From: a virus
Taxonomy: Duplodnaviria > Caudoviricetes
IMG/VR virus record: IMGVR_UViG_3300042934_000302
Coordinates: 1-58,412 of that record
DNA length: 58,412 nt
Reading direction: 5' to 3' (one strand)
The notes under the pieces are model-generated. The model ran no database searches, was not told where the DNA came from, and saw only the letters and a list, made by a program, of their open reading frames with translations. The translations under genes and the position numbers were made by a program. Position 1 is the stretch's first letter, and every line of letters begins with the position of its first letter. Below are positions 6,451 through 55,752 of this stretch, piece by piece.

Positions 6451-6464
6451 GGGGGTCCATATAA

Positions 6465-8788: not shown

Positions 8789-11589
8789 AAATGTCGATGA
8801 ACACCGATGCCAACCGTATTGCCCTCCGTAGAGAAACGCGGGCTAAAATAAGCGACGTAACTGCCGACGATTGGCAACGAATATTTGCGATGAAACTTAC
8901 GGATGCTGATCGTGATAAACTTCGACTGCTTAAACCGTTCATGGATCGTGGCGAAGTACAACGAAAGGCTACGAATCGCTATACGGCGACTGGCCGACCG
9001 CGACCTTTTAGCAAATCGGAAGCGCTCGAACTAGCTGTCGAAGTACAGGCGAAAATTGCGGAATCCAAACGTGAGGAACGTATGGTCGAAACGATTCGTA
9101 CGAAACCGGATAATTATCGAGTAATTACGGATGACACTGACCTACCGATGCTGATGGAGCGTATTCACGAAGAAGTTCGTTTACAGCAGAACGATCCATG
9201 GTTCCGTAAAGTATTCGATCTATTCAATCATACGTTAATCCGCGAGAAGTTACTCGAAAGCAACATTGAGATTCCGTTAGTATCGTCTTTTACTGAGTGG
9301 GACACTGAAACAAGTGGTACCGATACACGCATTGATATGACCGGTGGCTATTCGTTCTGGCTTCCGTTGCTTCGCGAAGGATATTACGTAGCTTACGGAC
9401 ACTTAACGAAAGATCCGCAATGCACGCGGTCAAAGGCATTAGGAGCGATTAAATCGTTCATATCGGATGCAAAGCAAATTAAATCGTTCCATAATACAAC
9501 GTTCGACTACGCGATGATGCTTAACGATAAAATGAAACCCGTTGGCTTTAGATACGACTCAATGGATGCGATGCAGATATTGAACGAACATGAAGAAACG
9601 TTCAAGTTGAAGGAACTCGCGCATAAGTACAAGTATCATATCGGCGCTGATCATTTGGATGATTTTACATTTGAAGATCTATTCGGCGATGGGTCACCGC
9701 TTATTTACTCTCCGGAAATCGTTGGTATATACGCGATAAAGGACGTTGAAAAAGGCTGGTTACTCACTAAATGGCAGATTGATATGCTGCTAAAATGTGA
9801 TGATCTTTACTATCCATATTTTCAGATCAGGCAGTATTTATATGAAGTCAATGTAACAATTGAACGGACTGGATTTGAAATTGATTTGCAGGAAATGAAG
9901 CAACTTGAAAACGAGTTCGAGCCGAAGTTGGAACAAGCCCTTCACGCGATCTATGACACGTACCAGATTGATGACAAGTTTCTTTACGATATGTCGATGA
10001 CTATTAATGGTGATCGAATTGAGTCATGGTGCACGAATAGAGAACGTCAGATAGCTAAACAGAACGAAATGTTAGCGAGTTGTAAAGAACAGCTTGTAGA
10101 CGTAAATCCGGAAACAAAAAAGTATCAGCAGTTAAAAGATCGAATTGAGCGGTATGAAACAAATCCGCTTGATCCACCTAGTCCAGATAATGCACCCGAT
10201 TTCATTCACGAGTTCAACTTAGATTCAGATAAGCATCGTCAATATCTTCTTTACGACGTGCTCAAAATCGAGGATAAGTCACACTTGTTCGATAAGCAGC
10301 GTAAGCGACTCGTTAATAAGAAGGTTATGGACTTATATTATCGCGATGTGCCCGAATTGAAGCCAATGGCTGAATACTCTAAGTTGTCGACGTTGCTCGG
10401 AACTTTCGTCAAGAAGATACCGAATGCACTCGATATGGATGGTCGGCTGCATACGCGACTATCAACGGTATCGACTGGGCGTTATAGTTCGAAGGGGTAC
10501 ACGGGCAAAGCAAACGATCTGTATCGCGATGATATTACGGATGATAATTTTATCGCACATATGAATGAATTGGTTCACGCGGACAAAGCGATTGAAAAGG
10601 GTACGAACGTACAGAACATTCCGGCTCGATCAAGCGAGGGAGAACGCGTGCGAATGACGTTTAAGCCACCGAAAGGGTGGACGTTCATAGGATCCGACTT
10701 ATCGTCGATTGAACCACGTATACAAGCACATCGTATGGCGACGGAGTTCGGTGACGACTCATTTGCGGAGATGTACCGAAAAGGATTCGATCCTTACGTT
10801 GAGTTTGCGGCAATCCTATTTGAAGTTCCAAAGGAAATCTGCCTAGAGACGTATTATAAATCGGTCAAGGGTACGGCCGACGAGGTTCCGGCGTACCGTA
10901 AAGCGATGAAGCAGATGTTTCTTGCTCGCGGGTATGGCCAAGCATTCGATATGTTCTACAAAGGTGTACTCAAGTTCGGCATTGGCGAACAGCAGGCGCG
11001 AAAGGCATACGATACATTCGACGATATACTGCCAGGTTTCGGGCATATGGTCGATGTAACATTCGAGCATTTACGCAAGCACGGCTGGACGGCAACGATA
11101 TTCAAGCAAAAGCGGAGATTCCCGGGGTACGTCGATAAGTGGCAGAGATTATGCCGAATGATGCGTCGATGTGGTATCCGCGATAAGAACGATCCTGATC
11201 TTGGTAAAAAATCTCGTAAATTGCCGTGGAAAGAACGGTCGGAATTTTGGGAGCTAATCAAGTTTACGGGGCGTTGTGAACGCCAAGGATTCAATCATAC
11301 AATTCAGGGCTCTGGCGCGAATATCCTACAAATGTGTATGATTAGAAACTATTATGAGTTTGTGATAAAACGTGGGTTCGAGTTTTGCTTGACTCTGCAT
11401 GACGAATTAAAAAACGCCGTGCCCAACGATAAGCTAACACCAGATATCATCCACGTGTATAACGATATCATGCGAAATACGTTTAGTCTCGCGTTACCAA
11501 TTAAATGTGATACAGTCATCGAGACAAAATGGATGGATGAGTACAGCGAAGATGAATGGGACTTCGAACACTGTAAGCCAGGAGGATGA
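8785..11589 (+). CDS. polA: Family A DNA polymerase with 3'-5' exonuclease
   Basis: ExoI DTET, motif A DLSSIEPR, motif B RKAMKQMFLARGYG, motif C LHDE. Confidence 0.95.
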   Translation: MKMSMNTDANRIALRRETRAKISDVTADDWQRIFAMKLTDADRDKLRLLKPFMDRGEVQRKATNRYTATGRPRPFSKSEALELAVEVQAKIAESKREERMVETIRTKPDNYRVITDDTDLPMLMERIHEEVRLQQNDPWFRKVFDLFNHTLIREKLLESNIEIPLVSSFTEWDTETSGTDTRIDMTGGYSFWLPLLREGYYVAYGHLTKDPQCTRSKALGAIKSFISDAKQIKSFHNTTFDYAMMLNDKMKPVGFRYDSMDAMQILNEHEETFKLKELAHKYKYHIGADHLDDFTFEDLFGDGSPLIYSPEIVGIYAIKDVEKGWLLTKWQIDMLLKCDDLYYPYFQIRQYLYEVNVTIERTGFEIDLQEMKQLENEFEPKLEQALHAIYDTYQIDDKFLYDMSMTINGDRIESWCTNRERQIAKQNEMLASCKEQLVDVNPETKKYQQLKDRIERYETNPLDPPSPDNAPDFIHEFNLDSDKHRQYLLYDVLKIEDKSHLFDKQRKRLVNKKVMDLYYRDVPELKPMAEYSKLSTLLGTFVKKIPNALDMDGRLHTRLSTVSTGRYSSKGYTGKANDLYRDDITDDNFIAHMNELVHADKAIEKGTNVQNIPARSSEGERVRMTFKPPKGWTFIGSDLSSIEPRIQAHRMATEFGDDSFAEMYRKGFDPYVEFAAILFEVPKEICLETYYKSVKGTADEVPAYRKAMKQMFLARGYGQAFDMFYKGVLKFGIGEQQARKAYDTFDDILPGFGHMVDVTFEHLRKHGWTATIFKQKRRFPGYVDKWQRLCRMMRRCGIRDKNDPDLGKKSRKLPWKERSEFWELIKFTGRCERQGFNHTIQGSGANILQMCMIRNYYEFVIKRGFEFCLTLHDELKNAVPNDKLTPDIIHVYNDIMRNTFSLALPIKCDTVIETKWMDEYSEDEWDFEHCKPGG

Positions 11590-11593
11590 TGCA

Positions 11594-12151
11594 TTGCGTT
11601 GGGAATCAATTATAGGCTATAAGGGCCTTTATGAAGTAAGTGATTGCGGGGATGTAAGAGCATTAGAAACTGGCATTATACGGAAAAAGCAAATAGCTAG
11701 GGGATACTATAGGGTTAACCTATCAAAGCATAGTGTTAAAAAATGGTATCAAGTGCATAGGTTAGTTGCTCGCGCTTTTTGTATCGGGTATCAAGATGGA
11801 TTAATCGTAAACCACATAGATGGGAATAAGCTAAACAATCATTATTCAAATTTAGAGTGGGTTACTCATCAGCAAAATACGCTTCACGGCGTTTATATAA
11901 TAAAAACAATAAATTACGAAAAGGGGCTTACCTATCTAAATAAATGTAGCAAAATGGCCAAAAATCCGGTTGCTATGTTTGATAGTGATAATAATTTAGT
12001 AGCTAAGTTTGAAAGTATTCGAGACGCAGCAAGAAAAACAGGGTTTAATAATGGAAACATATCGCTCGTATGTAATGGCAATAAGCAAAGCATATGTGGG
12101 TTCATATTCAAATTTATTGAAACTAGAACACGAAAGGAGACGATTGTTTGA
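11594..12151 (+). CDS. NUMOD4-HNH-NUMOD1 homing endonuclease
   Basis: W..I.GY.GLYEVS NUMOD4; VHRLVA...VNHIDGNKLNN...NLEW HNH; FESIRDAAR; TTG start after GGAGG. Confidence 0.9.
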   Translation: MRWESIIGYKGLYEVSDCGDVRALETGIIRKKQIARGYYRVNLSKHSVKKWYQVHRLVARAFCIGYQDGLIVNHIDGNKLNNHYSNLEWVTHQQNTLHGVYIIKTINYEKGLTYLNKCSKMAKNPVAMFDSDNNLVAKFESIRDAARKTGFNNGNISLVCNGNKQSICGFIFKFIETRTRKETIV

Positions 12152-13988: not shown

Positions 13989-14201
13989 ATGAACGATAAA
14001 CACCGATTACTCATCGTAGGACTAATCGACGAAATCCTACGAAATGATTTCGATAAAACCGATCTGCTCACGAAAGAGGAACACGTAGTTTGCTACGATC
14101 GATTGCACGAAGTCGTCGATACATCATCACCGCGTGAACTACGTGAGTCACTCGTAGCACTAGGACGGAAACTTTACGAGGAAGTCGGTGATGCTGAATG
14201 A
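13989..14201 (+). CDS. Hypothetical protein
   Basis: Coupled ORF with RBS. Confidence 0.65.
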   Translation: MNDKHRLLIVGLIDEILRNDFDKTDLLTKEEHVVCYDRLHEVVDTSSPRELRESLVALGRKLYEEVGDAE

Positions 14202-14407
14202 GAAAACACGTAATTAGCACGATCGCGACTATTGTAGTATCGATACTCTACTTCGTATTCTTCCAAGCGCTATTCGTCGGGGTTTCGTTGCTGATCGGAT
14301 TAACATTCGGACTTAACGTAAACGTGCGAGTGCCCGTAATAATCGCGACAATTATGTGGCTCGCAGCTACGTGGACCATCGTTCATGCATCGAGGGGGTT
14401 ACGATGA
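14198..14407 (+). CDS. Small membrane protein
   Basis: Two hydrophobic segments; ATGA coupling. Confidence 0.65.
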   Translation: MRKHVISTIATIVVSILYFVFFQALFVGVSLLIGLTFGLNVNVRVPVIIATIMWLAATWTIVHASRGLR

Positions 14408-14574
14408 TTTTAAATCGAGAATTGGTACGGTTGCTATCGAAGGAACTAGCGGAAACAGAACGTTGCATTGCGCAGCGCGAACGTGAGCTTACCGAATTGA
14501 ATTTGGAACGTAAGCAATTATATGACCGGCTGCACGAGCTGAACGAAAAGATACGAAACGGGGTGGGCGAATGA
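14404..14574 (+). CDS. Small coiled-coil protein
   Basis: ATG 14404 with gagggg RBS; heptad pattern. Confidence 0.6.
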   Translation: MILNRELVRLLSKELAETERCIAQRERELTELNLERKQLYDRLHELNEKIRNGVGE

Positions 14575-14747
14575 AAACATATGTATTGGTATACGATGCA
14601 GCAGTAATTCTATTATATATTGTAATGCTAGTATTGACTATGCTTGGGTATTCGGTGACTAGTAGTAATCTAGACATTCTACTTACCTTCTCGAATATCA
14701 TCATGCTTGGGCTAGTTAACGTAGTATTTATAGGGGGTGATCGCTAA
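14571..14747 (+). CDS. Small membrane protein (58 aa)
   Basis: ATGA/TAATG coupled; hydrophobic; below the track length cutoff. Confidence 0.55.
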   Translation: MKTYVLVYDAAVILLYIVMLVLTMLGYSVTSSNLDILLTFSNIIMLGLVNVVFIGGDR

Positions 14748-14938
14748 TGCTTGGGTATGGAATCAGCGCGTTATTAATCGCATGGATTCTATCACTATTC
14801 GGGTTCCATAAAGCCGTAATATACGGATATCACACGTTATTTGGCGGAAGCATTAATATTTACGTGTATTATCTCGTTTTCTTCACGATGGGCATTACCG
14901 GGTATATTATCGATCAGATCGCGGGGTGGCGTAAATGA
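14747..14938 (+). CDS. Small membrane protein
   Basis: Two hydrophobic segments; RBS gggggtg. Confidence 0.65.
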   Translation: MLGYGISALLIAWILSLFGFHKAVIYGYHTLFGGSINIYVYYLVFFTMGITGYIIDQIAGWRK

Positions 14939-15591
14939 GTATGCTGCTATCCGATAAGGAAAACGAAATCGTCGGTTTGATTCGTGATAAACGATATGAA
15001 CAAGCCCACGAAGAACTATCGAAGTTTATCAATACGGATCCGTTGCCGCCCGTTCATATCGCGCTCATTGGCAAGCTACGAAGTGGCAAGTCGGAAATCG
15101 CCACGTACCTATTCATGCAGCACGGCATCAACGATATTGCGTTCGCTGATTCGCTCAAGCGCGTGATTATCGATCTATACGGTCATAGCGATCATAAGCC
15201 GCGTGAACGACTGCAAGCGATTGGCGAAGCACTGTGCGAATATGATCCGGAAGTATTCGTCAATGCGGCATTACGTACAGCCATGCATTATGATCGCGTG
15301 TGCGTGAGCGATTGTCGCAAGCAAGTCGAATATAGTGCGCTCAAGGACGATGGCTATATGTTCATCCGCGTAACAGCAAGCGACGAGTTACGGTTACAAC
15401 GAGCACGGGAAGCAGGCGACGAGTTTACCGTAGCTGACCTGCAGCATACGACTGAAACGCAACTCGACGATGCGCCCGTAGATTACACGATTGAAAATGA
15501 CGGCAGCATCGAGGATCTGTATGCGAAAGTTGACGTAATATTAGCGGATATTCAACGTTCGTCATCTTCCGCAACATGTGCGACAAGCTGA
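14935..15591 (+). CDS. Deoxynucleoside monophosphate kinase-like P-loop protein
   Basis: GKLRSGKS, AFADSLK, RERLQAIG, SDCR...E, HTTE, IENDGS. Confidence 0.85.
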   Translation: MSMLLSDKENEIVGLIRDKRYEQAHEELSKFINTDPLPPVHIALIGKLRSGKSEIATYLFMQHGINDIAFADSLKRVIIDLYGHSDHKPRERLQAIGEALCEYDPEVFVNAALRTAMHYDRVCVSDCRKQVEYSALKDDGYMFIRVTASDELRLQRAREAGDEFTVADLQHTTETQLDDAPVDYTIENDGSIEDLYAKVDVILADIQRSSSSATCATS

Positions 15592-15941
15592 AATAGCTTC
15601 GTGCCACGCGGAATATCGACGCCAGCCAAATCGTCGCCAACGTATTCGTACCGAAGTGGCAGATTAGCCTTCGTCAGCCCGATATCTCGTACAAACGGCT
15701 TTGCGTATGCATAACGACGATTATCAAATTTAAACGGTTCTACGTCAGGCACACGAACAATGCCCGCTTTACCAACGACCATGCGTTTATTCGCTTTATC
15801 ATAGCCAACGAATAGTTGCGCAGGGTACTCGTTAATTTGTAATAGTTTAACGGAATCACTACTTAGATAAAGCCGTTGTTGCTTGTCTACCGTAACATAT
15901 GCGGTATTTGAAGATCGCGCGCTAATCCATTCGAATGACAT
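15552..15941 (-). CDS. Hypothetical protein (independently promoted moron)
   Basis: Counter-oriented ORF with ggag RBS and TTGACT-17-TACTAT upstream. Confidence 0.7.
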   Translation of the reverse strand: MSFEWISARSSNTAYVTVDKQQRLYLSSDSVKLLQINEYPAQLFVGYDKANKRMVVGKAGIVRVPDVEPFKFDNRRYAYAKPFVRDIGLTKANLPLRYEYVGDDLAGVDIPRGTKLFQLVAHVAEDDER

Positions 15942-16029
15942 AACGATTCACTCCGATTCAAACGTTTTATTAACATAGTATACGCAAGTTCACCGAAAGT
16001 CAATCGTAACAACGAAAGGAAGCGGTAAT

Positions 16030-16368
16030 TTGGCGAACGAATACCCCGGCTTATATACGAGTGTTGGCGTAAAAGCGTTGCTACGCGACTATAATACGCT
16101 ACATGACCGTGGCTACGATAAAGGCGATTATAACGCGGTAATCATGATCGTAGACCTCGAATGTGCGATCACACTCGCAGGGCTTACGGACAGGCAATCG
16201 GAAATCCTACGACTGATTTACGTTGATGACCGAACGCAAGACGACACCGCTGGCGCGCTAAATATTACGCAGCAAACAGTGAGCGAAGAGCTTGCGGAAG
16301 CCCATCGAAAGATTGCCGCTGTTTACGATTACTGGCGTAAAACTGATAATACCACGGTGACAATCTAA
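16030..16368 (+). CDS. Sigma-70 region-4-like HTH regulator
   Basis: LTDRQSEILRLIY...TQDDTAGALNITQQTVS. Confidence 0.8.
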   Translation: MANEYPGLYTSVGVKALLRDYNTLHDRGYDKGDYNAVIMIVDLECAITLAGLTDRQSEILRLIYVDDRTQDDTAGALNITQQTVSEELAEAHRKIAAVYDYWRKTDNTTVTI

Positions 16369-16378
16369 TAAACATACG

Positions 16379-16416
16379 AAAGCCCCTACGCCTATCTACG
16401 TAGGGGCATTTATTTT
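16379..16416. terminator. Intrinsic terminator, probably bidirectional
   Basis: GCCCCTACG-8-CGTAGGGGC followed by atttatttt, between convergent genes. Confidence 0.7.
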
Positions 16417-16513
16417 ACGTACACGCGGCATATTATAAACGAATAAACCCTACGTTTATTCGCGTAGGGTGGAATAGATTACTATATCGTTATTGACGTA
16501 ATTAATGATTATG

Positions 16514-16540
16514 ATACGTAGTAGTGTCGAATTGTGAATT
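16514..16540 (-). repeat. Cassette junction site (exit) AATTCACAA-TTCGACACT-ACTACGTAT
   Basis: Overlaps the stop of 16539-16739; matches 55726-55752 and 45997-46023. Confidence 0.7.
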
Positions 16541-16739
16541 AGAAAAATCTTTTACGAAAGATTCCAAGCGCTATTAATAGCTCTTCTGAACAACGCATGA
16601 ACTCTTCTTGTTGATCTGCAAGATATGCTTCATCACCGTATTTCTTATCTTGATCACGCATATCTTGCATAGCTTCAACCATTTCTGATATAGCTTTAAC
16701 CTGTTTTTCATTGAGTTTGTGACCAATTAAATCTTTCAC
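16539..16739 (-). CDS. AT-rich hypothetical cassette gene 2
   Basis: RBS aaggaaggtg; flanked by junction sites. Confidence 0.75.
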   Translation of the reverse strand: MKDLIGHKLNEKQVKAISEMVEAMQDMRDQDKKYGDEAYLADQQEEFMRCSEELLIALGIFRKRFF

Positions 16740-16751
16740 GCTCTCACCTTC

Positions 16752-16778
16752 CTTCGTTTTAGCTATCTACTGAACAGT
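16752..16778 (-). repeat. Cassette junction site (internal) ACTGTTCAG-TAGATAGCT-AAAACGAAG
   Basis: Lies between the two AT-rich genes; right half matches 16973-16999 and 55428-55454. Confidence 0.7.
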
Positions 16779-16960
16779 TAAAAGTTACCCAATGTTGTAA
16801 TCATTCTGTTCTTTTCTTTTTCCAAAGAATATTTTTGTACCATTAATTTGTTAATGTACCTGTTTCTGCTATCTGTGTATTCGGTTTCCTGTTTGACACA
16901 TAGTCTTTCAATGCGTCTTTGAAGATCATCAATTTTGTCAATCAATAACTTCCCCTGCAT
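16778..16960 (-). CDS. AT-rich hypothetical cassette gene 1 (MQGKLLIDKIDD...)
   Basis: ATG 16960 after gaaggga RBS; flanked by junction sites. Confidence 0.7.
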   Translation of the reverse strand: MQGKLLIDKIDDLQRRIERLCVKQETEYTDSRNRYINKLMVQKYSLEKEKNRMITTLGNF

Positions 16961-16972
16961 TTGCTTCCCTTC

Positions 16973-16999
16973 TTTCGTTTTAGCTGTCAACTACGCATT
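16973..16999 (-). repeat. Cassette junction site (entry) AATGCGTAG-TTGACAGCT-AAAACGAAA
   Basis: 24/27 identical to 55428-55454. Confidence 0.75.
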
Positions 17000-17005
17000 A
17001 CTATT

Positions 17006-17041
17006 CACTATATAATACGTACAAGCATCCATAATCGCGCA
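17006..17041 (-). promoter_or_regulatory. Putative phage-sigma promoter TGCGCG-N16-CGTATTATATAGTG
   Basis: One of four copies with identical spacing. Confidence 0.7.
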
Positions 17042-17046
17042 TATTT

Positions 17047-17319
17047 TCAGAAGTTATTTAGTAGATCATCGAGTCCACCCGTCAGCTCATCATCAGACTT
17101 TTCGATACGATCGAGCATTGGCATCGGTGTTTGCTCATCGCTAACCACCGTTCGCACACGTTCCCCTTCGAAAAACCACGCTCTTAGCGCATCACGTAGC
17201 ACATCGCTAATATCGATACCTTCCGAAAGCTGTTCGATGGCTCGACGCAAATCATCATCCTTCTTCGCGCGGATCCGGCATTTAATTATCTCCGGGCACT
17301 TACGCTTTTGTTCGCCCAT
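17047..17319 (-). CDS. ParR-like ribbon-helix-helix adaptor
   Basis: Small gene coupled downstream of ParM; strand-helix-helix pattern (ISDVLRDALR); C-terminus ending LLNNF. Confidence 0.6.
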   Translation of the reverse strand: MGEQKRKCPEIIKCRIRAKKDDDLRRAIEQLSEGIDISDVLRDALRAWFFEGERVRTVVSDEQTPMPMLDRIEKSDDELTGGLDDLLNNF

Positions 17320-18272
17320 AGTCGAGCACCTATCTTTCCGTAGCCACGCACGTTGCCAAATTGCGGGTTATCGAGGGCAACAACGTTTGGCAGATCGATA
17401 TACTTCGCGATGAATGACGCCGACCCACCGGTTAGCAAATAAGTTGCGTAATATGCCGACTGGCTCTCGATCTCTAGTAGAATCTGCTGCGCGAGCGAAC
17501 GGAAGGCGCGGTCAACTAACGGCTTAATATCGTACCCAGCGTATTCACCAGCGAGCACATATCGGTCTAACTCGAAACGTTCCGGTGCTCGACCGATTGA
17601 TTCCATAAGGTATCCGTTGAGCAGATCGTACGCGGTGTCTACGCCAAGATTACGCGGGCTACGACTATTTTTACCGATTTCCATCCCTTCGAGTTCGAGA
17701 AGATCAAGCGTGTAATATCCGATATCAATGACGAGCATCGGTTTCTTCGCGGCATCAGGACGAGCAAGCGAGCCATCGTCAGCAAGCAGATAATCCATTG
17801 CGCTGCCGAACGGCTGTGGCACGATCTTATGTTTCGCGATCAATGGGTTAGCATGTATCGTTCCTTGGCCGACTACTTCGACGGAATAACGCCCGCTTTC
17901 GTTAATTGTGTCGAATAAATGCACGAAACCGTTCTTCTGCGTTAAATAGTAGTCTACGGGCAGCCCGGTAATGATATTCGACGCGCCAGTCGGTGCTAAT
18001 CGAGCAAGTAGCGTTTTAAGCAGCACCGCTGTTGTCCACGTATCCGTTTTATCCTCGCCGGTACTCGTATAGCGAATCTTACTTTGCCGTAGCGCGAGAT
18101 CACCGATAAAAAAGTCACCGTCATCACCGTGATAAATCAAATCACCAGGCTTACGTTGTTCCTCCATTAATTGACGCGCGTCTCCAACCACGGACGGTTG
18201 GCTAAAATATCGTTCTCCTGCGACCGCTTTCGTCCACCCGTAACCCATATCAGCACTGACAAAATTATTCAT
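17286..18272 (-). CDS. parM: ParM/StbA-family actin-like ATPase
   Basis: DMGYGWTK, TGLPV, VPQP, IDIGYYTLD, LTGGSA, NVRGY actin-fold motifs; ATG 18272 follows GGAGG. Confidence 0.92.
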   Translation of the reverse strand: MNNFVSADMGYGWTKAVAGERYFSQPSVVGDARQLMEEQRKPGDLIYHGDDGDFFIGDLALRQSKIRYTSTGEDKTDTWTTAVLLKTLLARLAPTGASNIITGLPVDYYLTQKNGFVHLFDTINESGRYSVEVVGQGTIHANPLIAKHKIVPQPFGSAMDYLLADDGSLARPDAAKKPMLVIDIGYYTLDLLELEGMEIGKNSRSPRNLGVDTAYDLLNGYLMESIGRAPERFELDRYVLAGEYAGYDIKPLVDRAFRSLAQQILLEIESQSAYYATYLLTGGSASFIAKYIDLPNVVALDNPQFGNVRGYGKIGARLWANKSVSARR

Positions 18273-18273
18273 T

Positions 18274-18492
18274 TTAATTTCCTCCATTCACCAGTTTACC
18301 AAATTTAGATTCAATATTTTCAAGGTGCTGCCCAGTTTCATGTTTATACCAATCAATAGTTTCACGTAGCCGATAACACCGATACTGAAAATGCGACTGG
18401 TTTTTATCATAAGCATCCCATGCGTCTAAACAACTGATTTCGTCCATGATCGCGTTATAGATAAAGATTTTTACAAACTCGTTTATGATCAA
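18274..18492 (-). CDS. Hypothetical protein
   Basis: RBS gaggtg; lies in the operon between the Replic_Relax gene and ParM. Confidence 0.6.
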   Translation of the reverse strand: MIINEFVKIFIYNAIMDEISCLDAWDAYDKNQSHFQYRCYRLRETIDWYKHETGQHLENIESKFGKLVNGGN

Positions 18493-18497
18493 TCACC

Positions 18498-19133
18498 TCA
18501 GTTTGTGGCACGTTGTGCCACGTTTTGTATAAAATCACGCACATCATCACTTTGATACGCATTGACGTTCGCATATCGTCGTTTTCCGATAATCCATATG
18601 TGGGGAAATATCGGCTTACCATTCGGCTGCCAATCGAGATTATGCCATGCACCCGATTGTCTATATCGTTCATATCGCGCTAATTTACGTCGCATTACGG
18701 TATCCGTGTAATTACTACGCTGTACCTCGATGAACCACGGCGATCGGTTCCATATCGCGAAGATATCCGGTTCTACCGTACCTTTCGCGCCATACTTCGG
18801 CTCAACGATGAAACGCTGCAAATTGCCGTATGCTTGTAAATCGCGATACACACGCAGTATGCCGATAAAGTGGTCGATCTTCTGACTGCCTTCGCGAATA
18901 CGAGCGTCCTTCGGCATGTATACGTAGGAATTACGAGTAGCATCGACCTTCACGTAACCCTTCGCACGCAATCGTCGCATCACACGATTAACTTCCACGG
19001 TCGCGTACCGTATACCTGCGAAGTGTAATGCAGCAATATCATCGCGACTCATGCAACGGAAACGGTCGAGGTCAGCGAGTATTCGTTTATCACGATCAAT
19101 CAAGTTCACTACCTCCTTTTTCGTCAAGCGCAC
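18498..19133 (-). CDS. Replication-relaxation (Replic_Relax) family protein; true start probably near 19103
   Basis: RDKRIL.DL.RFRCMSRDDI wHTH, EPD...FIEVQ PD-(D/E)XK-like motif; coupled to FtsK. Confidence 0.85.
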   Translation of the reverse strand: MRLTKKEVVNLIDRDKRILADLDRFRCMSRDDIAALHFAGIRYATVEVNRVMRRLRAKGYVKVDATRNSYVYMPKDARIREGSQKIDHFIGILRVYRDLQAYGNLQRFIVEPKYGAKGTVEPDIFAIWNRSPWFIEVQRSNYTDTVMRRKLARYERYRQSGAWHNLDWQPNGKPIFPHIWIIGKRRYANVNAYQSDDVRDFIQNVAQRATN

Positions 19134-20253
19134 CGAAAGGGTTAGGTAGATTATTGATTGTTTTCGGTTGCTTTACGCTAGGTTCGCGATAATAAGGCGT
19201 AAGTAACTTTATCGCCGCGTCATCGGTCAATAATGGTGCTTGCACGAGTTCGGGTCGTTTTATTTTGAGCAGCATGCGGCCGGTAACATCGAGATTTTCT
19301 GCACCTTTCGCGCCTAATGTGATCTTCGAGTTGATTGCATCAGCATGTTCGAACGCCATGCGAACTGTTAGATTCGCTTTCAACTTTCCGTCAAGAACGT
19401 CTGCATCCGGTCGCTGCATCGATAGGATAAGGTAAACGCCAAGCGCACGGCCAAGGGCCGATATATCTTCGAGCAACTTCATGGCTTCTTTGTCGCCGTG
19501 CAACATCGCAACTTCATCGATGCATACGATAATGTCTGCTGGCCGCTTTCCTGGCGGTAAATCAACCACGTTTACTTTGCCACATTGATCAAGTAGGTTG
19601 CCACGTTTCGTTAACTCGCATTGTACCTCGGATAGTGCTAGCGCAAGCGCATCATTATCGTTGCATAACGCATCTACGTGGGCAATATTGCGAAATAAAC
19701 CGAACTCGCTACGTTTCATATCGGCAAGCACAAACCGTAGCATATGCGGTGATTTGATCCGTATCAGCGTCGTTAGAATAGCGCGTAGTTGCGTTGATTT
19801 ACCGCTGCCCGTTTCACCAGCGATAAGCAGGTGGGGATGCACGAACATATCGTATGCGAACAGCTTACCGTCCGCGCGAACACCGGTAATAATAGGCAAC
19901 GCCATGCCCTCGCAAACTGTGCTAACTTCCGACCATCGATAGGTTAATTTCCTTGGCATTTGACGCTCATACACGTGAATAATGAACTTTTTCGGTCCGC
20001 CGTGTACCGTTGTATTCGTGCCAAACGTCTGCTGAAACGCATATTCGCGCTTTTCAACGAGTTTCGGATCAACGCCGTTGGGCAATGTAAAAGTCATTGC
20101 CGTATAGCCGTCTTTACGTTCGATCGCGTGAATAATCGGCAGCACTTCGTAGCCACGCCGCGTTTTAAAGATGCCGACTGATCGAAAGCAATCGTTCAAT
20201 TTACGATACATCGGATTAAATCGTAGCAACATCGCGATCACCATAGCTTCCAT
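19096..20253 (-). CDS. FtsK/SpoIIIE-family ATPase
   Basis: PHLLIAGETGSGKS, DMKRSEF, IDEVA, GRALGV, MQRPDA. Confidence 0.93.
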   Translation of the reverse strand: MEAMVIAMLLRFNPMYRKLNDCFRSVGIFKTRRGYEVLPIIHAIERKDGYTAMTFTLPNGVDPKLVEKREYAFQQTFGTNTTVHGGPKKFIIHVYERQMPRKLTYRWSEVSTVCEGMALPIITGVRADGKLFAYDMFVHPHLLIAGETGSGKSTQLRAILTTLIRIKSPHMLRFVLADMKRSEFGLFRNIAHVDALCNDNDALALALSEVQCELTKRGNLLDQCGKVNVVDLPPGKRPADIIVCIDEVAMLHGDKEAMKLLEDISALGRALGVYLILSMQRPDADVLDGKLKANLTVRMAFEHADAINSKITLGAKGAENLDVTGRMLLKIKRPELVQAPLLTDDAAIKLLTPYYREPSVKQPKTINNLPNPFGALDEKGGSELD

Positions 20254-20738: not shown

Positions 20739-20921
20739 TTACTTCGTTTTGTCCAACGTGTAGACGGTTTTCTTCTTTAATGCGTACTTTCCACCAGCAT
20801 AATCCTGCATAAAAGCTTCGAGCACATCATTCATAGTCGCGCCAGTATCTTTACAATATGCCTTAAACGACGCTTGAATATCCTCATCAATGGTTGTTGT
20901 AAATGGTTTTCGCTCGCTCAT
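20739..20921 (-). CDS. Ribbon-helix-helix (CopG-like) regulator
   Basis: RKPFTTTIDEDIQASFK...TMNDVLEAFM; RBS aggaggtg. Confidence 0.75.
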   Translation of the reverse strand: MSERKPFTTTIDEDIQASFKAYCKDTGATMNDVLEAFMQDYAGGKYALKKKTVYTLDKTK

Positions 20922-21988: not shown

Positions 21989-22138
21989 GCGAATTAAACC
22001 GAGTATTAAAGATCAACGCGCGTCGAAAGTATTACGGCGGATGGGACATTTACGACAAGGGTGACGATAAAAAGAAACGTGCACGCCTGGAACGAACGTT
22101 GAGGAAACGGGTAGATCGGATTGCTATCGCGGAAATGC

Positions 22139-22174
22139 TGCGCGATTAGGCGTTGGGAAACGTATTATATAGTG
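22139..22174 (+). promoter_or_regulatory. Putative phage-sigma promoter TGCGCG-N16-CGTATTATATAGTG
   Basis: Both boxes identical to 17006-17041. Confidence 0.7.
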
Positions 22175-22185
22175 AGGTGAATAAT

Positions 22186-23487: not shown

Positions 23488-23619
23488 AATACATTGCAGG
23501 TACTCGCTTACGCTCGACCTGCTACATGTTTATTTAAATACCTTTGTTCGCGAATATCTTTAAATCTTGTCAAAGACAAGAAAGAAAAGAAAAAGTTTCG
23601 CTAAAAAGAAAAGAAAGAA
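23488..23619 (+). repeat. Origin-like non-coding element, copy 1
   Basis: Shares AATACATTGCAG..CTGCTAC, GTTCGCGAA and a 39-bp identical purine block with 52383-52512. Confidence 0.85.
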
Positions 23620-29162: not shown

Positions 29163-29179
29163 GAAAGGAATGAGATTGT

Positions 29180-42895: not shown

Positions 42896-44044
42896 ATGAG
42901 TAGCGGAACAACGGAAAATCTCGGATTGCACACGTGGGAACCGACTGATTATGTAAAAAGAGACGAGTTTAACGATAACTTCGATAAAATAGATCAAGTT
43001 GCAGGCGATCATGCTGCGCAGTTGGCGGAAGAGACACAACAACGATTGAATCAAATAAATGAAGTGATATATGTCAAAAAAAACAAACCTCAGTATAGGG
43101 GTGTAGCATATGGACTCTTGGAAGGAAATACAGACGTTGACACTATGCTTGCGAATGTTAAAAGCTGGGACTGTCAAATTGAATTGGTTGTTTTTGTTAG
43201 TGTTTCCGATATTAATTCAACATCTTTTGCAACGTTATCTGCCGCTAAAATGGATGAATTTTTTCAAAAGGCAAATACAGCAGGAATAACCATTTCCTTT
43301 ATGGCGATTCATTTAGTTAAAAATTTTGACGATGGAGCAAATGGAAATAAGCAAACGATTAAACCATTGCCAGGTAATGAAAGTACATGGTTTACAAACT
43401 ACGAGCAGGCAGTTCGCTTTTATATGGAATATGCAAAGAACAATGGGGTAGATCATTTTTCTATCGCAAATGAAAATTTGTCAGTATCGACAGATCCAGC
43501 CTTACTTTCTTATTGGATTGCAATGATTAACAGTTTAAAATCAACATATCCAACAATCCAATTATCTTATAACAATAGCGATCCTGAACAGGCAATTTTT
43601 ATTGCTACTCAAAAAGCTGAGAGTGACAATTTACTGAATCATTTGGATTTCATTAGCATGAACGTCTATCCACGTTTAAGTGAAAACACTCTCTACACAG
43701 CCGGAGATGAAAGTTTAAATAAAATGTTAAAGTCCGTATCTTTATTATCTATTAGAGATACGATACACGCCCTGTCAGCATTATATGATAAAGAAATATT
43801 TATTAGCGAAACTGGCTGTATGGGGTTAGACAATTCTCTTTATGAGCCTATTTATTTGAACCAAGGTTCTGACCCAAAACCGACCAATAATTTAGTTCAA
43901 GGATATTATTATAATGGAATTTTTAATAGCTTGGCTTTAATTGATGCTGTTAAAGGGTTGTTCATTTGGAACTATAGTCCTCCATTCGATTTTATTGGAA
44001 AAACTGCTGAAACCATTTTTGAAGATTATATGAAAGGAGAATAA
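42896..44044 (+). CDS. Tail fibre/receptor-binding protein with clan GH-A-like TIM-barrel glycoside hydrolase domain
   Basis: Anchor TENLGLHTW...FNDNFDKID; candidate catalytic IANEN and FISETG; DFISMNVYP. Confidence 0.7.
   Translation: MSSGTTENLGLHTWEPTDYVKRDEFNDNFDKIDQVAGDHAAQLAEETQQRLNQINEVIYVKKNKPQYRGVAYGLLEGNTDVDTMLANVKSWDCQIELVVFVSVSDINSTSFATLSAAKMDEFFQKANTAGITISFMAIHLVKNFDDGANGNKQTIKPLPGNESTWFTNYEQAVRFYMEYAKNNGVDHFSIANENLSVSTDPALLSYWIAMINSLKSTYPTIQLSYNNSDPEQAIFIATQKAESDNLLNHLDFISMNVYPRLSENTLYTAGDESLNKMLKSVSLLSIRDTIHALSALYDKEIFISETGCMGLDNSLYEPIYLNQGSDPKPTNNLVQGYYYNGIFNSLALIDAVKGLFIWNYSPPFDFIGKTAETIFEDYMKGE
43013..43039 (+). repeat. Degenerate cassette junction site (entry), in frame inside the tail fibre gene, GCTGCGCAG-TTGGCGGAA-GAGACACAA
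   Basis: Left half matches the other entry sites; the sequence turns AT-rich immediately after it. Confidence 0.45.
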
Positions 44045-45378: not shown

Positions 45379-46008
45379 GTGGGTGAAATTATCACGTTAA
45401 ACAAGATGAGAAAAATTCTAAAAATAAACTATATCAAAAGCCTACTATTAAGCAAAGCGCTGAATATTTTGGTCTTTCCAAAGGTAAATATTGGATTGTC
45501 AAAGAACGTAGAAATAATAAATAATGGTCATTTAAGATTGGGAGAAACATGGGAAAAGAATGGCTATTTGCCATCGATGTTTAAGATGGGGGATAATGCA
45601 ATATTGAAAGTAAATGGTAATTTTAATATTTTTTCAGGTTTCAAAGTGTCGATTAATGAGGGTGCAACTTTAGAAATTGGTGACGGTTATGCCAATTATA
45701 ATGTAAATATCGCATGTTTTGAAAAGATAAAGATAGGTAAAAATGTAATTATTTCTGAAAATGTAAGTATTAGAGACTCTGATAATCATAAAATGCTCTA
45801 TTCGGGATATGAAATGAGCAAGCCAATTATCATTGATAATCATGTATGGATAGGCATGAATGTAACTATATTAAAAGGTGTTCATATTGGAGACGGTGCT
45901 ATAATTGCTGCTGGCTCTGTGGTAACAAGAGATGTTCCTAAGCATTGCCTTTTTGGTGGTGTACCAGCTAGATTAATAAAGGAAAATGTGAGTTGGACAG
46001 AAAAGTAG
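45379..46008 (+). CDS. Hexapeptide-repeat (LbH) O-acyltransferase
   Basis: [46 protein letters not shown]. Confidence 0.92.
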
Positions 46009-46023
46009 GACGCTACTGCGCAA
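45997..46023 (+). repeat. Cassette junction site (exit) ACAGAAAAG-TAGGACGCT-ACTGCGCAA
   Basis: Contains the acyltransferase stop; right 15 bp match the other exit sites; marks the end of the AT-rich block. Confidence 0.55.
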
Positions 46024-46041
46024 CAACTAAATAATTAACAT

Positions 46042-48555: not shown

Positions 48556-48598
48556 AAAACCCCTTACGATTAATTTCGTAGGGGGCGTTTTTTTGTTT
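48556..48598. terminator. Bidirectional intrinsic terminator
   Basis: aaaaccccttacga-ttaatt-tcgtagggggcgttttttt between convergent genes. Confidence 0.7.
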
Positions 48599-49052: not shown

Positions 49053-49065
49053 GGCCTCGTCTCCT

Positions 49066-49101
49066 CACTGTATAATACGTATGCCAACGGTAAATCACGC
49101 A
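49066..49101 (-). promoter_or_regulatory. Putative phage-sigma promoter TGCGTG-N16-CGTATTATACAGTG
   Basis: Third copy, same spacing. Confidence 0.7.
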
Positions 49102-49151
49102 GTTTTATCGATTTTATTTTCTATGCTAAACTAATATGTATATGCGCTTTA

Positions 49152-49310: not shown

Positions 49311-49340
49311 TTAGAGTTATACGTGAAATACCGTGACACA

Positions 49341-49376: not shown

Positions 49377-49392
49377 ATGTAGGAACATTATT

Positions 49393-49449: not shown

Positions 49450-50421
49450 TTGCGAAGAAGAAACGACTTGTCAGCAGACGAAATCGCGAAAGTTAATGGG
49501 CTAGTAACAGCCGAATCATTTACGTTAGACGAACTTGTTGATCTGTTCATTAACGATTGTAAGGTGAAGGATCTGCGCGAATATACACAAATAGATTATC
49601 GTAATGATATCCATGCATTCTCGAAATATTTACGTGAACAAGACGTTGATCCACACCCGTCAACAGTAACTACTGATGAAATTAAAGAAAATTTTATTCT
49701 ATACGCTAAAGAAATAAAAAATATTAAGCCAGTGTCGATTAATACTCGTATTCGGTCATTAAAGGTATTCTTTAACTTTTTGAAACGCAACCATTATATT
49801 AAAGACAACCCAATGGAAAGTATTACTCAGCTGAAGCACCGCAATAGAATAATTCCAACGTTTTCTAACAGGCAAATCAATGATTTATTCAATAAAGTTA
49901 ATCTTCGGACATTTACGGGCATTCGCGACCTAACTATTATGAAACTGATGCTGGACATCGGGGTCCGCGTAAATGAATTAATTAACATCGATGTATATGA
50001 TGTGAAACTAGATGACTCAATGGTCCACGTTAGAAAAACTAAAGGATATAATGAGAGAATGTTGCCAATATCTACTGAAATGCGAGAGCAGATAAAAAAA
50101 TATATACGGATTCGAGGACGTCTAACTACCGATGCATTGTTTGTTACAGTAGATGGAGGCAGATTATCTAAGCGGCAAGTTCAGAACCGTGTTATAAAGT
50201 ACGGGAATGATGCTAAGATTGTCGGGGTACGCTGTTCTCCGCATACATTTCGGCATACGTTCGCTAAGATGTCTGTACAAAACGGTGCAAATATATTCGA
50301 CTTACAGATGATGCTTGGTCATACGTCGATGGAAATGGTCCGTATTTACGTTAATCTATTCGGTAATGATGTACGCGAAAAACATAGAGAGTTCTCGCCA
50401 TTAAAAAACCTACACAAATAA
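49450..50421 (+). CDS. int: Tyrosine integrase
   Basis: GVRVNEL (R), KTKG (K), HTFRH, LGH, IYVN (Y). Confidence 0.95.
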   Translation: MRRRNDLSADEIAKVNGLVTAESFTLDELVDLFINDCKVKDLREYTQIDYRNDIHAFSKYLREQDVDPHPSTVTTDEIKENFILYAKEIKNIKPVSINTRIRSLKVFFNFLKRNHYIKDNPMESITQLKHRNRIIPTFSNRQINDLFNKVNLRTFTGIRDLTIMKLMLDIGVRVNELINIDVYDVKLDDSMVHVRKTKGYNERMLPISTEMREQIKKYIRIRGRLTTDALFVTVDGGRLSKRQVQNRVIKYGNDAKIVGVRCSPHTFRHTFAKMSVQNGANIFDLQMMLGHTSMEMVRIYVNLFGNDVREKHREFSPLKNLHK

Positions 50422-52512: not shown

Positions 52513-52523
52513 GGTTGAGCACG

Positions 52524-54684: not shown

Positions 54685-55440
54685 GTGGTTCGAATGGATT
54701 ACGCTAACTCACCGCTCTTACATTTCACCAACGTCACCACACCGCCGGCTACCGGCAGCCCACTCGCCGCTGCGTGTGATGCGTTCAGCGCCCGCCTAAT
54801 CGCCGCAAACATTCCGGTAGACTATTTATCCGCACCGATGATTGACGCTACTGTACAGGTCACAGCGAAGGTTAACGGTCATGTACGAAGTAATGCCGCT
54901 GGGCTGGCCGAATGGCTGCCGAAGTATGAGCGATCATTCGGCGAGAGTACCGCACCAAAATCGTTGTACCTGTTCAGTCGCGGCAAAGGCGTAGGTAAGA
55001 CAGCGACAGCCTGCCGATTGCTGATCGATTATATGGCGACACAATTCGTAGCTGCGTTGAAGGAAGGACGCACGCCACCGCAGAGGATCGGGTACTTCCT
55101 CGACTTAACCGAAATGCAAACGTCTTACAATATCGCGAGCATGACACATGACGATGAGGGCATGGCGCGAATAGGTGAAGTAGTAAAGCGAGTACAGCAC
55201 GCGGAAATGACGGTACTTGATGATGTTGGCGTTCGGTCAGCAACGGAGGCATTCAGGGCATACGTTCATGCCATCGTGAATTATCGGGTTGCGAACGGTA
55301 AGCCAACGATTTATACGAGTAATATCGAGGTTGACGAGTTGGCAAACGTATTTGATGAGCGACTGGCTGACCGTGTGCGCGAGAAGTGTTTCGAGATTAC
55401 ATGGATGGAAAACGATAGTAAACGGGGAATACGTAGTTGA
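54685..55440 (+). CDS. DnaC/IstB-like AAA+ helicase loader
   Basis: GKGVGKT, VLDDVG, NYR, TIYTSN, RLADR. Confidence 0.9.
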   Translation: MVRMDYANSPLLHFTNVTTPPATGSPLAAACDAFSARLIAANIPVDYLSAPMIDATVQVTAKVNGHVRSNAAGLAEWLPKYERSFGESTAPKSLYLFSRGKGVGKTATACRLLIDYMATQFVAALKEGRTPPQRIGYFLDLTEMQTSYNIASMTHDDEGMARIGEVVKRVQHAEMTVLDDVGVRSATEAFRAYVHAIVNYRVANGKPTIYTSNIEVDELANVFDERLADRVREKCFEITWMENDSKRGIRS

Positions 55441-55454
55441 CATCTAAAACGAAG
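55428..55454 (+). repeat. Cassette junction site (entry) AATACGTAG-TTGACATCT-AAAACGAAG
   Basis: 24/27 identical to 16973-16999 (minus strand); contains the loader stop codon. Confidence 0.75.
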
Positions 55455-55466
55455 GAGTGACAAATA

Positions 55467-55727
55467 TTGAAACTTATATGTATCAAATCGGTTCAGATGA
55501 AAGGTGAAAAGAAAGCTGATAGATTTCAAGCGTTCACAAAAGGGAAAAAATACATGGCAAGAAAAGGGATGTTAAAAGGAAAAATGCAAGGTGTAAGCGA
55601 TGATCCCTATGATATAACACCAGTTTTACGAGCAAAAAATGATAACGGAGAAAGTCATATCATTAAGATTATTAAAGACGATTCATTTGATGATTTTTTT
55701 AATGAGCATTTTCAGGAAATCAAGTAA
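55467..55727 (+). CDS. AT-rich hypothetical cassette gene
   Basis: MKLICIKSV...FTKGKKY; RBS aaggag; bounded by junction sites. Confidence 0.75.
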   Translation: MKLICIKSVQMKGEKKADRFQAFTKGKKYMARKGMLKGKMQGVSDDPYDITPVLRAKNDNGESHIIKIIKDDSFDDFFNEHFQEIK

Positions 55728-55752
55728 TTAGCAGTACGACACTAATACGAAA
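55726..55752 (+). repeat. Cassette junction site (exit) AATTAGCAG-TACGACACT-AATACGAAA
   Basis: Overlaps the cassette gene stop; matches 16514-16540. Confidence 0.7.

Follow-up and report, generated by a model that had tools for sequence, protein, structure and literature searches.

The window analysed here (58,412 nucleotides; IMG/VR record IMGVR_UViG_3300042934_000302, positions 1 to 58,412) is the genome of a complete temperate phage of the Caudoviricetes. It contains two loci, array 1 and locus 2, at which small AT-rich genes are enclosed by copies of a short junction motif. The motif occurs in two polar forms, form A lying 5' and form B lying 3' of the enclosed cassettes. Blocks running from A to B have been exchanged between otherwise unalignable phage backbones, through the motif itself.

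Array 1 consists of a promoter-like element, an A site, a 60-aa open reading frame (ORF), a second A site, a 66-aa ORF, a B site and two terminator-like hairpins. Locus 2 consists of a DnaC-like gene, an A site, an 86-aa ORF, a B site, a Shine-Dalgarno (SD) sequence and the next backbone gene. The coordinates of all features are given in Table 1. A preliminary description of this DNA had proposed an integron-like array of AT-rich genes bounded by a recurring site. The three sites of array 1 (minus strand, 16999-16973, 16778-16752 and 16540-16514) and those at 55428 and 55726 read as it had claimed, and composition and sequence confirm that the enclosed genes are AT-rich and CpG-poor, with stop codons that overlap the sites.

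The cargo genes have a GC content of 0.31-0.34 with 11-25 CG dinucleotides per kb, compared with 0.45-0.52 and about 100 CG per kb in their flanks, and they are more AT-rich than every other backbone found carrying them. The cargo is thus compositionally foreign. The CpG excess is strong in the window backbone (observed/expected 1.66, about 81 CG per kb) and likewise in the closest relative, G001 (1.65); the ratio is 1.03-1.19 in other motif-bearing phage contigs and 0.45-1.0 in the cassettes and the tail-fibre module. The cargo proteins gave no Pfam match, and PHROGs returned one family of unknown function only. Atlas scores for their function were 0.80-0.85, below the meaningful level, and the cassette 3 protein, used as a query, was not found in 37 genomes of the family Sporolactobacillaceae. 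No RNA run was listed among the sequencing runs that contain the phage. The cargo genes are natural candidates for host-takeover or anti-defence genes.

A junction motif in two polar forms

The motif is about 20-27 nt long. Form A reads (G)CGCAGT-T/A-GACAGCTAAAACGAA and is followed within a few bases by an SD sequence and the start of an accessory ORF; its core, CAGT-T/A-GACAGCTAAAACGAA, is found at 16993 (-), 16772 (-) and 55434 (+). Form B, TAATTCGCAGT-W-CGACACTAC-n-ACG, starts where the last accessory ORF has its stop codon (consensus with the stop included, stop-TAATTCGCAGTWCGACACTACnACG). Its core, CAGT-W-CGACACTAC-n-ACG, mostly stands after TAATT and is found at 16534 (-) and 55732 (+). 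In a gap-free alignment, A and B are alike at 12 of 20 positions, and the third site of array 1 is a mere variant of the first. The two entry sites (16971-16999 and 55428-55456) are copies of one 29-nt motif on opposite strands, with 26 of 29 nt (90%) shared. The 22-nt string CGTAGTTGACANCTAAAACGAA had two matches in the window at up to three mismatches and none in 100 shuffles, and CGACACTANTACG occurs in the window exactly twice, at the two exit sites.

Sixteen arrays with the order A, one to three ORFs and B on the coding strand were counted in the lineage. A and B are directly oriented in all 16, the distance between them ranges from 226 to about 1800 nt, and one array contains a DNA methyltransferase gene. 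In 730,226 bases of gathered sequence there were 37 distinct A-type hits with up to three substitutions, compared with one hit for the reversed pattern. Twenty-four of these hits lie in the window, in lineage contigs or in family genomes, and 19 of the 24 are followed by an SD sequence and a start codon. The remaining 13, which came from exact-pattern scans of very large collections and were used as an internal control, lie in unrelated organisms, and none of them is followed by an SD sequence and a start codon. The motif ends 0-12 nt before the SD sequence, and the start codon lies 11-25 nt past the motif. Other genes of the window do not carry it. Because these genes, and the same backbone genes in relatives, lack the motif, it is not a general translation signal.

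Folded as single-stranded DNA, the five window sites gave minimum free energies of 0 to -1.1 kcal/mol and z scores of +0.57 to +1.54 (200 shuffles each). Since they fold more poorly than their shuffles, the sites are not attC-like, and neither folding nor inspection revealed dyad symmetry in A or B. In array 1, and clearly in array 1 only, the left half of A (CGTAGT) is the reverse complement of the right half of B (ACTACG). For a 28-nt palindromic consensus, the window gave just two matches, one at 45997 with 7 mismatches and one at 55726 with 8; a dyad is retained as a rival description of the sites, not as the principal one. The core of the tRNA-like attP was rejected as a model of the B site, with only GTTCGAC in common.

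Outside the window, exact-pattern scans and searches of the 37 family genomes located the motif in IMG/VR contigs L009, L012/L014, L013 and L034 and in prophage regions of several family genomes, among them records titled Sporolactobacillus shoreae BK92 and S. terrae DSM 11697. The A-site scan of metagenomes returned L061 alone, which has no SD sequence or start codon behind it and looks like a chance match. Eight of the ten stretches returned by the genome scan lie in unrelated organisms and also look like chance; by our own estimate, 596 billion bases should contain about 17 hits by chance. In the 37 family genomes, hits to shorter patterns were roughly as numerous as those to their reversed controls, and only A/B pairs on the same contig were used from these hits. 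Among 50,697 deposited phage genomes, no DNA match to either locus or to the A site was found; a lone hit at E = 2 lies within a coding region of a Sporosarcina phage.

A related repeat is present in host chromosomes at 0-3 copies per genome. It reads GTTGCRCAGT-W-CGAC-n-C-TACTGCGCAAC, with 11-nt inverted arms and a 6-nt spacer (11-6-11), and has 17 of 18 nt in common with the B sites. Seventeen hits at up to one mismatch were obtained, compared with 11 for the reversed control, and six were exact, compared with an estimated 0.25 or so by chance. The two arms complement each other at 5-10 of their 11 positions in ten copies, and one change is compensatory. The copies (L124-L126, L129, L131 and L134-L138) are intergenic. 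Most of them precede a conserved stretch of about 100 nt with AACTTTATTGT repeats, and the other side is variable. This dyad repeat possibly marks a mobile-element end or an att-like site. Rfam gave no match in the window or in the ten host-repeat loci, and no tRNA gene was found in the window or at the host repeats.

Cassettes exchanged between backbones

G001 (IMG/VR, 61.2 kb) shows about 77-95% identity to the window over most of its genome. It was the one relative found by an IMG/VR search with the ParM-like, DnaC-like and sigma-like proteins and the only close whole-genome relative, most other related sequences being short metagenome contigs. At array 1, homology to G001 is lost at 16966 and returns at 16541; between these points G001 has a single unrelated 120-aa ORF, enclosed by a degenerate A site and a well-kept B site. 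A relative with another gene at the same junctions, as envisaged in the preliminary description, is thereby available. At locus 2, homology is lost at 55430 and returns at 55757. The corresponding stretch of G001 (29040-29632, equivalent to window 55431-55756) contains a gene that, from its translated sequence, reads as an HNH-AP2-type homing endonuclease, with unrelated flanks and neither site. Because G001 has neither site at this position, both sites of locus 2 belong to the insert and not to the backbone.

The same cassettes were identified in unrelated backbones. L139, a 13.5-kb IMG/VR contig with a different replication module, matches the window solely at 16998-16522 (98.95% identity over 477 nt). 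Its copy of ORF 1 encodes the same 60 aa with one residue changed (I to V), its copy of ORF 2 is 98% identical, and site 2 is kept together with the array. The A site of L139 is unlike that of the window in its left half and the same from GACAGC onward. Its B site is the same through TAATTCACAATTCGACA and different from the next base, the break falling right after GACA. Copies of ORF 3 with 93-97% identity are present in two other backbones. L140 and L141 (= L142 = L143) are homologous to the window only at 55435/6-55752 (93-96%), with three extra matches of 43-51 nt farther downstream in L143. The window and L140 have the left half of B in common and differ in its right half, whereas L140 and L141 have the right half and the downstream backbone in common and differ in the left half. 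Between two cassettes of L140 stands the hybrid CAGTTCGACAGCTAAAACGAA, which is the left half of B joined to the right half of A exactly as expected from an A-by-B exchange; a hybrid site of this kind had been anticipated for a crossover within the sites.

Two different genomes, L116 and L107, have a common cassette (about 97% identity), with homology that begins at the A site and drops just past the B site; their A regions differ by seven mismatches in 30 nt. Breaks at the edge or in the middle of a site were also found in the pairs L012/L058, L047/L059, L053/L057 and L034/L057. Logan contigs from four soil-metagenome runs (three studies), aligned to 14000-20000, leave the window at 16517, 16525, 16992 and 17002, and Logan unitigs end at 16988/9 and at 16525 or 16536. 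For a contig of 6579 nt from run X5, the fit to the window is confined to 16517-16992. The depth of the array in run X6 is 117-151, compared with about 4.6 in the flanks. Being assembled contigs, these data show presence and context, not frequency. Runs X1-X3 of the six listed are possibly the source sample, and X1 was the one of them compared. An X1 contig that joins 16541 to 16998 was rejected as a deletion; its depth is that of a G001-like strain, and it is read as a replaced cassette. A 30-nt loose end of one Logan contig was not found in IMG/VR.

In six or more independent comparisons the breakpoint falls on the motif, and homology starts or stops at or inside the sites, as at site 1 for L139 and the metagenome contigs; that the sites delimit exchangeable cassettes, as first claimed, is thereby upheld. 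The contigs from other contexts diverge from site 3 at 16517, 16525 and 16535/6. The junctions vary in position within about 25 nt. Those of the B side follow TAATTC, GACA or ACG, and those of the A side lie at 17002, near 16989 or past the SD sequence, so that at least three positions are used on each side of the cassettes. A crossover near position 12/13 of the site had been proposed; two comparisons do break at the mid-site GACA, but there is no single fixed point. The sorting of site halves by role, also proposed, is borne out no more than loosely when more sites are compared. ORF 1 and ORF 2 were encountered only as a pair, and their supposed mobility as single genes is not supported.

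When the window and G001 are aligned, 22 intervals separate the successive aligned blocks, and only two of these contain the motif; a general role of the sites as docking points for gene exchange is not supported. Six other clean indels between the two genomes fall at gene borders with TAAATG overlaps, a repeated terminator tail or stretches from the ribosome-binding site (RBS) to the start codon. The terminator tail, GGGGGCGTTTTTTTGTTTAT (window 48571-48600 and 49349-49378; G001 19790-19830 and 20760-20790), flanks a 0.9-kb insertion in G001, which would be another case of exchange at repeated boundary sequences. Compared with L009, L012 has an extra 62-aa gene (oriented locus about 1310-1500) between 12-nt direct repeats, GGATATGAGYGG, that correspond to the end of the upstream gene, which suggests that insertions also occur just left of the A site through other microhomology. 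Because these indels and the L012 gene lie at other short repeats, exchange at boundary microhomologies appears to be general in the lineage. In L141 (1387-1492) and L140 (1142-1250), two B-type sites stand 86 nt apart and enclose only 66 nt of non-coding sequence, like a cassette without an ORF, and the segment downstream of this double-B region is also present in L009.

Table 1. Positions of the sites, cassette genes and associated features in the window
Feature	Position	Strand	Remarks
Promoter-like element (GCGCGATTA...ACGTATTATATAGTGA)	17001..17045	-	Upstream of array 1; conserved in G001
Site 1, A-type (TAGTTGACAGCTAAAACGAA at 16993-16974)	16973..16999	-	Followed by RBS and ATG at 16960
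Cassette ORF 1, 60 aa	16778..16960	-	No family match; GC 0.317
Site 2, internal A-type (CAGTAGATAGCTAAAACGAA)	16752..16778	-	Overlaps stop of ORF 1; followed by RBS and GTG start
Cassette ORF 2, 66 aa	16539..16739	-	No family match; GC 0.343
Site 3, B-type (TAATTCACAATTCGACACTACTACG)	16514..16540	-	Overlaps stop of ORF 2
Two terminator-like hairpins	16382..16470	-	Stems 16470-16447 and 16407-16382; close the transcription unit of array 1
Candidate left junction of tail-fibre module (CTGCGCAGTTGG = A-left arm)	43010..43030	+	Inside tail-fibre ORF at composition shift
T-type junction (GTAGGACGCTACTGCGCAACAAC)	45997..46024	+	3' end of AT-rich tail-fibre module; G001 homology resumes at 46006
Probable attP	49254-49312		Just upstream of recombinase gene; resembles 3' part of a tRNA gene
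Xer-like tyrosine recombinase	49450..50421	+	323 aa; sole recombinase found in window; candidate, no link to the sites
Locus 2 A-type motif	55428..55456	+	TGA within TTGACA is the stop of the upstream DnaC-like gene
Cassette ORF 3, 86 aa	55467..55727	+	phrog_28132 (function unknown); GC 0.314
Locus 2 B-type motif (TAATTAGCAGTACGACACTAATACGAAA)	55726..55752	+	Followed by RBS of next backbone gene

Mechanism of exchange and known systems

The exchange can be read as linker-mediated modular exchange by short-homology recombination between motif copies, a reading to which we give about an even chance. It is adopted because the junctions vary within the motif and because other indels use other gene-border microhomologies. 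We infer both the enzymology of the exchange and the reason for the conservation of the motif as follows. The sites would be copies of a linker motif specific to a lineage of Sporolactobacillaceae phages and prophages, and the cargo would consist of one to three small AT-rich promoterless genes between A and B. Motif copies would recombine through short imperfect homology in co-infections or between a phage and a prophage, by means of general recombination functions of the phage or the host; a Cas4-like exonuclease and a RuvC-like resolvase, both encoded in the window, may be among the agents. The motif would persist as the stop-linker-SD expression context of accessory genes. For a circle formed by A-by-B recombination, the predicted junction is CAGT-W-CGACAGCTAAAACGAA.

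Several observations weigh against short-homology recombination. The identical stretches available for pairing amount to about 15 nt in the right half of A and 7-14 nt in B, and RecA-type recombination normally needs longer identity than these. No single-strand annealing protein was found in the phage, in which several proteins of the replication module have no family match. In two independent comparisons the junction falls exactly at the central GACA, and the hybrid of B-left and A-right is clean, both as site-specific exchange predicts. The 15-nt right half of A is near-invariant across phages without other DNA similarity, which calls for selection, and the motif resembles the 11-6-11 dyad repeat of the hosts. 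No empty site, circle or deletion was seen in the assembled contigs, although empty sites had been predicted in the preliminary description.

The recombinase that might serve the sites was also sought. The window recombinase lies 32 kb from array 1 and scored 70.1 bits with TIGR02249 (cut-off 265) and 42 bits with NF011946 (cut-off 435); its best models, XerD and XerC, gave 175-180 bits, also under their cut-offs. No integron integrase was found in the window, where this is the sole tyrosine recombinase scored. The enzyme is Xer-like and not IntI, and the array is not an integron. L139 encodes, at 6125-6673, a tyrosine recombinase of 182 aa that consists of the catalytic domain alone; its gene has a sigma/ArpU-like gene on one side and an HNH/terminase region on the other. 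This enzyme has no counterpart in the window or G001 (best tblastn E 0.52), and the motif-bearing phages therefore share no obvious dedicated enzyme. A homologue with 70% identity to it is encoded in a host genome (L083, 2493-3014), 1 kb from an A-like site. None of these recombinases could be linked to the sites.

The chief rival, close to the model of the preliminary description, is a site-specific system dedicated to cassettes. In such a system A and B would be hybrids of the attL/attR kind, with strand exchange in the central GACA region by a tyrosine recombinase. The core would comprise a left arm GTTGCGCAGT, a spacer of about (C)GACA(C) and a right arm TACTGCGCAAC or TAAAACGAA, and cassettes would be excised as circles and loaded into other sites; the Xer-like recombinase of the phage, a small catalytic-domain-only recombinase or host XerC/D are the candidate enzymes. 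We consider this a serious but rather unlikely possibility. It would explain why, between the window and L139 and between the window and L140, the left half of B and the right half of A stay with the cassette and the right half of B and the left half of A change with the backbone, and it predicts the hybrid present in L140; yet the left half of B differs between L140 and L141 for the same cassette, and junctions occur at several positions. The near identity of the host repeat to B and its one conserved and one variable side, as at the end of an element, fit the same view, but A and B themselves have no dyad or folding of their own, and the complementarity of A-left and B-right, which also fits, is clear only in array 1. 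Tyrosine recombinases occur in the window, in L139 and near the A-like site of L083, but that of the window has its own attP and the window has no counterpart of that of L139. The very short identical blocks and the near-invariance of A-right across unrelated phages speak for dedicated sites; the use of the motif in so few of the window-G001 intervals and the lack of any empty site or circle among the sequences compared speak against them. In its fullest form, an undescribed system with sites of 20-27 nt derived from an 11-6-11 dyad core that is present in the host chromosome as well, served by an Xer-like or host tyrosine recombinase and transferring single ORFs and also the tail-fibre (host-range) module between unrelated phages, the proposal is doubtful and if anything slightly less probable.

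An expression signal alone, in the form of a DNA- or mRNA-binding site upstream of the SD sequence with an incidental position at gene borders, is improbable. All copies do lie along the direction of transcription, most lineage A sites precede an SD sequence and a start codon, the motif stands upstream of accessory, non-structural genes only, A-right is strongly conserved beside the SD sequence, and the motif takes in the upstream stop codon in four cases, as is reported for the start-associated sequences (SAS) of Cluster K mycobacteriophages (PMC3203893), to which such a signal would be comparable. However, several B sites have no gene behind them: terminators follow in array 1 and G001, and 66-117 nt of non-coding DNA follow in L009, L140 and L141. 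The same backbone genes also lack the motif in relatives, as a 160-aa gene does in G001 (it has a B site in the window) and a helicase gene in L013 (it has the motif in L034), and the motif contains no SD sequence. A mere regulatory or translation signal, named as an alternative in the preliminary description, is largely contradicted as the sole explanation by the gene-less B sites and by the breakpoints at the motif.

That the similarity is due to chance, or to chimeras assembled from metagenomes across a short repeat, is very improbable. Metagenome assembly did yield the window, G001 and most related contigs, and Logan contigs break at the sites. Against this, shuffles gave no matches, identical junctions are found again in separate IMG/VR records and across runs of three studies, three host CRISPR arrays contain motif spacers, and the A-to-B arrays in the isolate assemblies of S. 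shoreae BK92 and S. terrae DSM 11697 contradict an artefact. Assemblers use word lengths above the 15-20 nt of the identical blocks (an index word of 31 is documented), and chimeras are therefore not expected from blocks of this size.

Among known systems, the nearest in behaviour is that of the promoter-early stem-loop (PeSL) elements of T4-type phages (Arbiol et al. 2010, PMC2839356; Comeau et al. 2014, PMC4122927); the likeness to SAS is one of form, and that to integron cassettes and dif modules one of concept. In T4-type phages, conserved motif repeats flank orphan ORFs within variable regions, close relatives differ by insertions, deletions or replacements there, and exchange between the copies has been proposed (PMC2839356). 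PeSLs are about 100 bp long and combine a sigma-70 early promoter with a terminator stem-loop (PMC2839356). Mini-circles have been shown, and crossovers occur in zones rather than at one point (PMC2839356). Here too, a repeated intergenic motif borders orphan ORFs, relatives differ by indels or replacements at the motif, chimeric motifs are proposed and crossovers fall in zones. Unlike PeSLs, the motif is only 20-27 nt long, has no stem-loop, folding or common promoter, occurs in two polar forms and belongs to temperate phages of a Bacillota family; mini-circles are a feature of the PeSL system.

Integron attC clusters have been reported in phages (Qi et al. 2023, PMC9892861). As in integrons, promoterless units of one orientation stand at array 1 behind a common promoter-like element with a putative promoter role, are bounded by short sites, occur as the same cassette in different arrays and form hybrid junctions. 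No IntI was found, however, the sites lack the folded imperfect inverted repeat of attC and the junction position is variable; the likeness to integrons proposed at the outset does not extend to membership.

The dif (pdif) modules of Acinetobacter plasmids are served by host XerC/D (PMC6449649, PMC13141974, PMC7399989). They resemble the present cassettes in that short sites flank modules shuffled among replicons without an element-borne transposase, and an 11-6-11 repeat is present in the hosts here. The pdif sites are full 28-bp XerC-spacer-XerD sites that flank the modules in inverted orientation. A and B, in contrast, are direct repeats without dyad symmetry, lack the two inverted 11-bp arms with a 6-bp spacer and have no evident likeness to the Bacillus-type dif consensus.

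Cluster K mycobacteriophages have SAS and extended SAS (ESAS); the SAS is 13 bp long, contains the SD sequence and is separated from the start codon by 3-7 bp (Pope et al. 2011, PMC3203893). Like the motif, the SAS is a short asymmetric repeat without assigned function, in one orientation and close upstream of the starts of non-structural genes of various families, sometimes with the upstream stop codon inside (PMC3203893). The motif differs in lying 5' of the SD sequence, in having a 3' form of which several copies have no downstream gene and in its coincidence with exchange breakpoints, which are not reported for SAS in the available text; gene families also do not keep the motif across relatives.

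In the modular theory of Botstein, modules are exchanged through conserved flanking linkers, by which they come to lie in a suitable context (summarised in PMC2839356), and the motif resembles such linkers. It differs from them in being a defined, recurrent short sequence with two forms that is common to unrelated backbones. Array 1, as a unit of promoter, genes and terminator between backbone genes, resembles a moron. In a limited literature collection, no paper on the motif was found (one of four motif strings occurs in unrelated papers on adeno-associated virus and Arabidopsis), and none on Sporolactobacillus phages or prophages of this kind. The motif lacks the defining features of each known family for which these could be tested. 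It is assigned to module exchange at conserved linkers, a known principle, with a fair chance of being something beyond that.

How phages swap single genes so cleanly at gene borders has been asked for a long time; linkers were proposed by Botstein, and illegitimate recombination with subsequent selection by Hendrix. The sequences compared here form a natural before-and-after set: one cargo recurs at 93-99% identity in backbones that do not align, one backbone holds different cargo in a relative, and a hybrid site is present. The defined two-form junction sequence makes the linker idea testable. If short homology is responsible, the PeSL principle would extend from T4-like to temperate Bacillota phages, with a shorter, promoter-less linker. 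If site-specific recombination is responsible, the cassettes would be a functional analogue of integrons and dif modules in Bacillota phages, and the motif, as a true recombination site, would define a new kind of cassette system and offer a docking sequence for phage engineering in this group.

The phage, its host and further features

The first 93 bases of the window are identical to its end, and the IMG/VR record is classed as having direct terminal repeats and being 100% complete. The window is therefore the whole phage genome, of about 58.3 kb. Matches to PHROG, Pfam and NCBIfam families identified a DnaB-like helicase, a primase and a DNA polymerase, and two stretches matched HNH endonuclease families (11507-12151, E 5e-44; 52467-53006, E 3.5e-06 only). 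The window also encodes an FtsK-like ATPase, a replication-relaxation protein and two sigma-like factors, and a ParM-like actin gene is followed by a gene for a small protein without a known family. Genes of plasmid type (the ParM-like actin, the small downstream protein, the replication-relaxation protein and the FtsK-like ATPase) lie in 17047-20253, alongside an integration module elsewhere in the genome. The phage may have two prophage lifestyles.

The probable attP has 97-100% identity over 58-65 nt to a sequence in 33 of the 37 Sporolactobacillaceae genomes. This match to a tRNA-like attP indicates that the host probably belongs to the Sporolactobacillaceae, with which it is consistent without being proof, the attP having been searched in that family alone. 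CRISPR arrays with motif-matching spacers were identified in three genomes of the family: L077 (G024:C1) and L080 (G028:C29), with one A-type spacer each, and L114 (G002:C4), with a B-type spacer. The arrays contain 17 to 43 or more repeats at a spacing of 64-69 nt. The spacers support a Sporolactobacillaceae host and the motif as a recurrent target.

The promoter-like element upstream of array 1 follows the pattern GCGYGATT...ACGTATTATAYAGTGA over about 40 nt. Further copies are present at 22138-22180 (+) and 49060-49102 (-), as a 43-nt repeat at 81% identity, and each of the three copies lies directly upstream of a gene or array. The element has a -10-like TATTAT and no canonical sigma-70 match. 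Because the sigma-70 scan did not list it, its promoter function is one that we infer; the thrice-repeated element may be a phage-specific promoter or operator. The order with the promoter first, as originally described, stands to the extent that the element recurs upstream of genes, but not as a canonical sigma-70 promoter. A promoter-like match, TTCACA-16-TATCAT, overlaps site 3, the sole one of the five sites to have one; the other B sites lack it. The region of array 1 has five terminator-like sites, compared with 1.0 expected.

The tail-fibre module has a GC content of 0.319, compared with 0.47 in its flanks. Sites at both of its ends had been suggested in the preliminary description. The right one, at 45997-46024, is a conserved junction with the spacer and right arm of the host dyad repeat, which recur at the corresponding place in several prophages. 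The left one, at 43013, shares only GCGCAGTTG. Evidence for 43010-43030 as the left junction is weak, and G001 has no tail-fibre homologue for comparison.

Two further sequences were recorded. A possible decayed site, the degenerate A-like sequence GATAGACAGCGTAAAACACGAGGAGG, lies in 53355-53398, upstream of a 122-aa gene (53399-53767) and in a stretch where the window and G001 are conserved. Two direct copies of an A/G-rich repeat of 42 nt, with 98% identity, stand 29 kb apart at 23578-23619 and 52471-52512.

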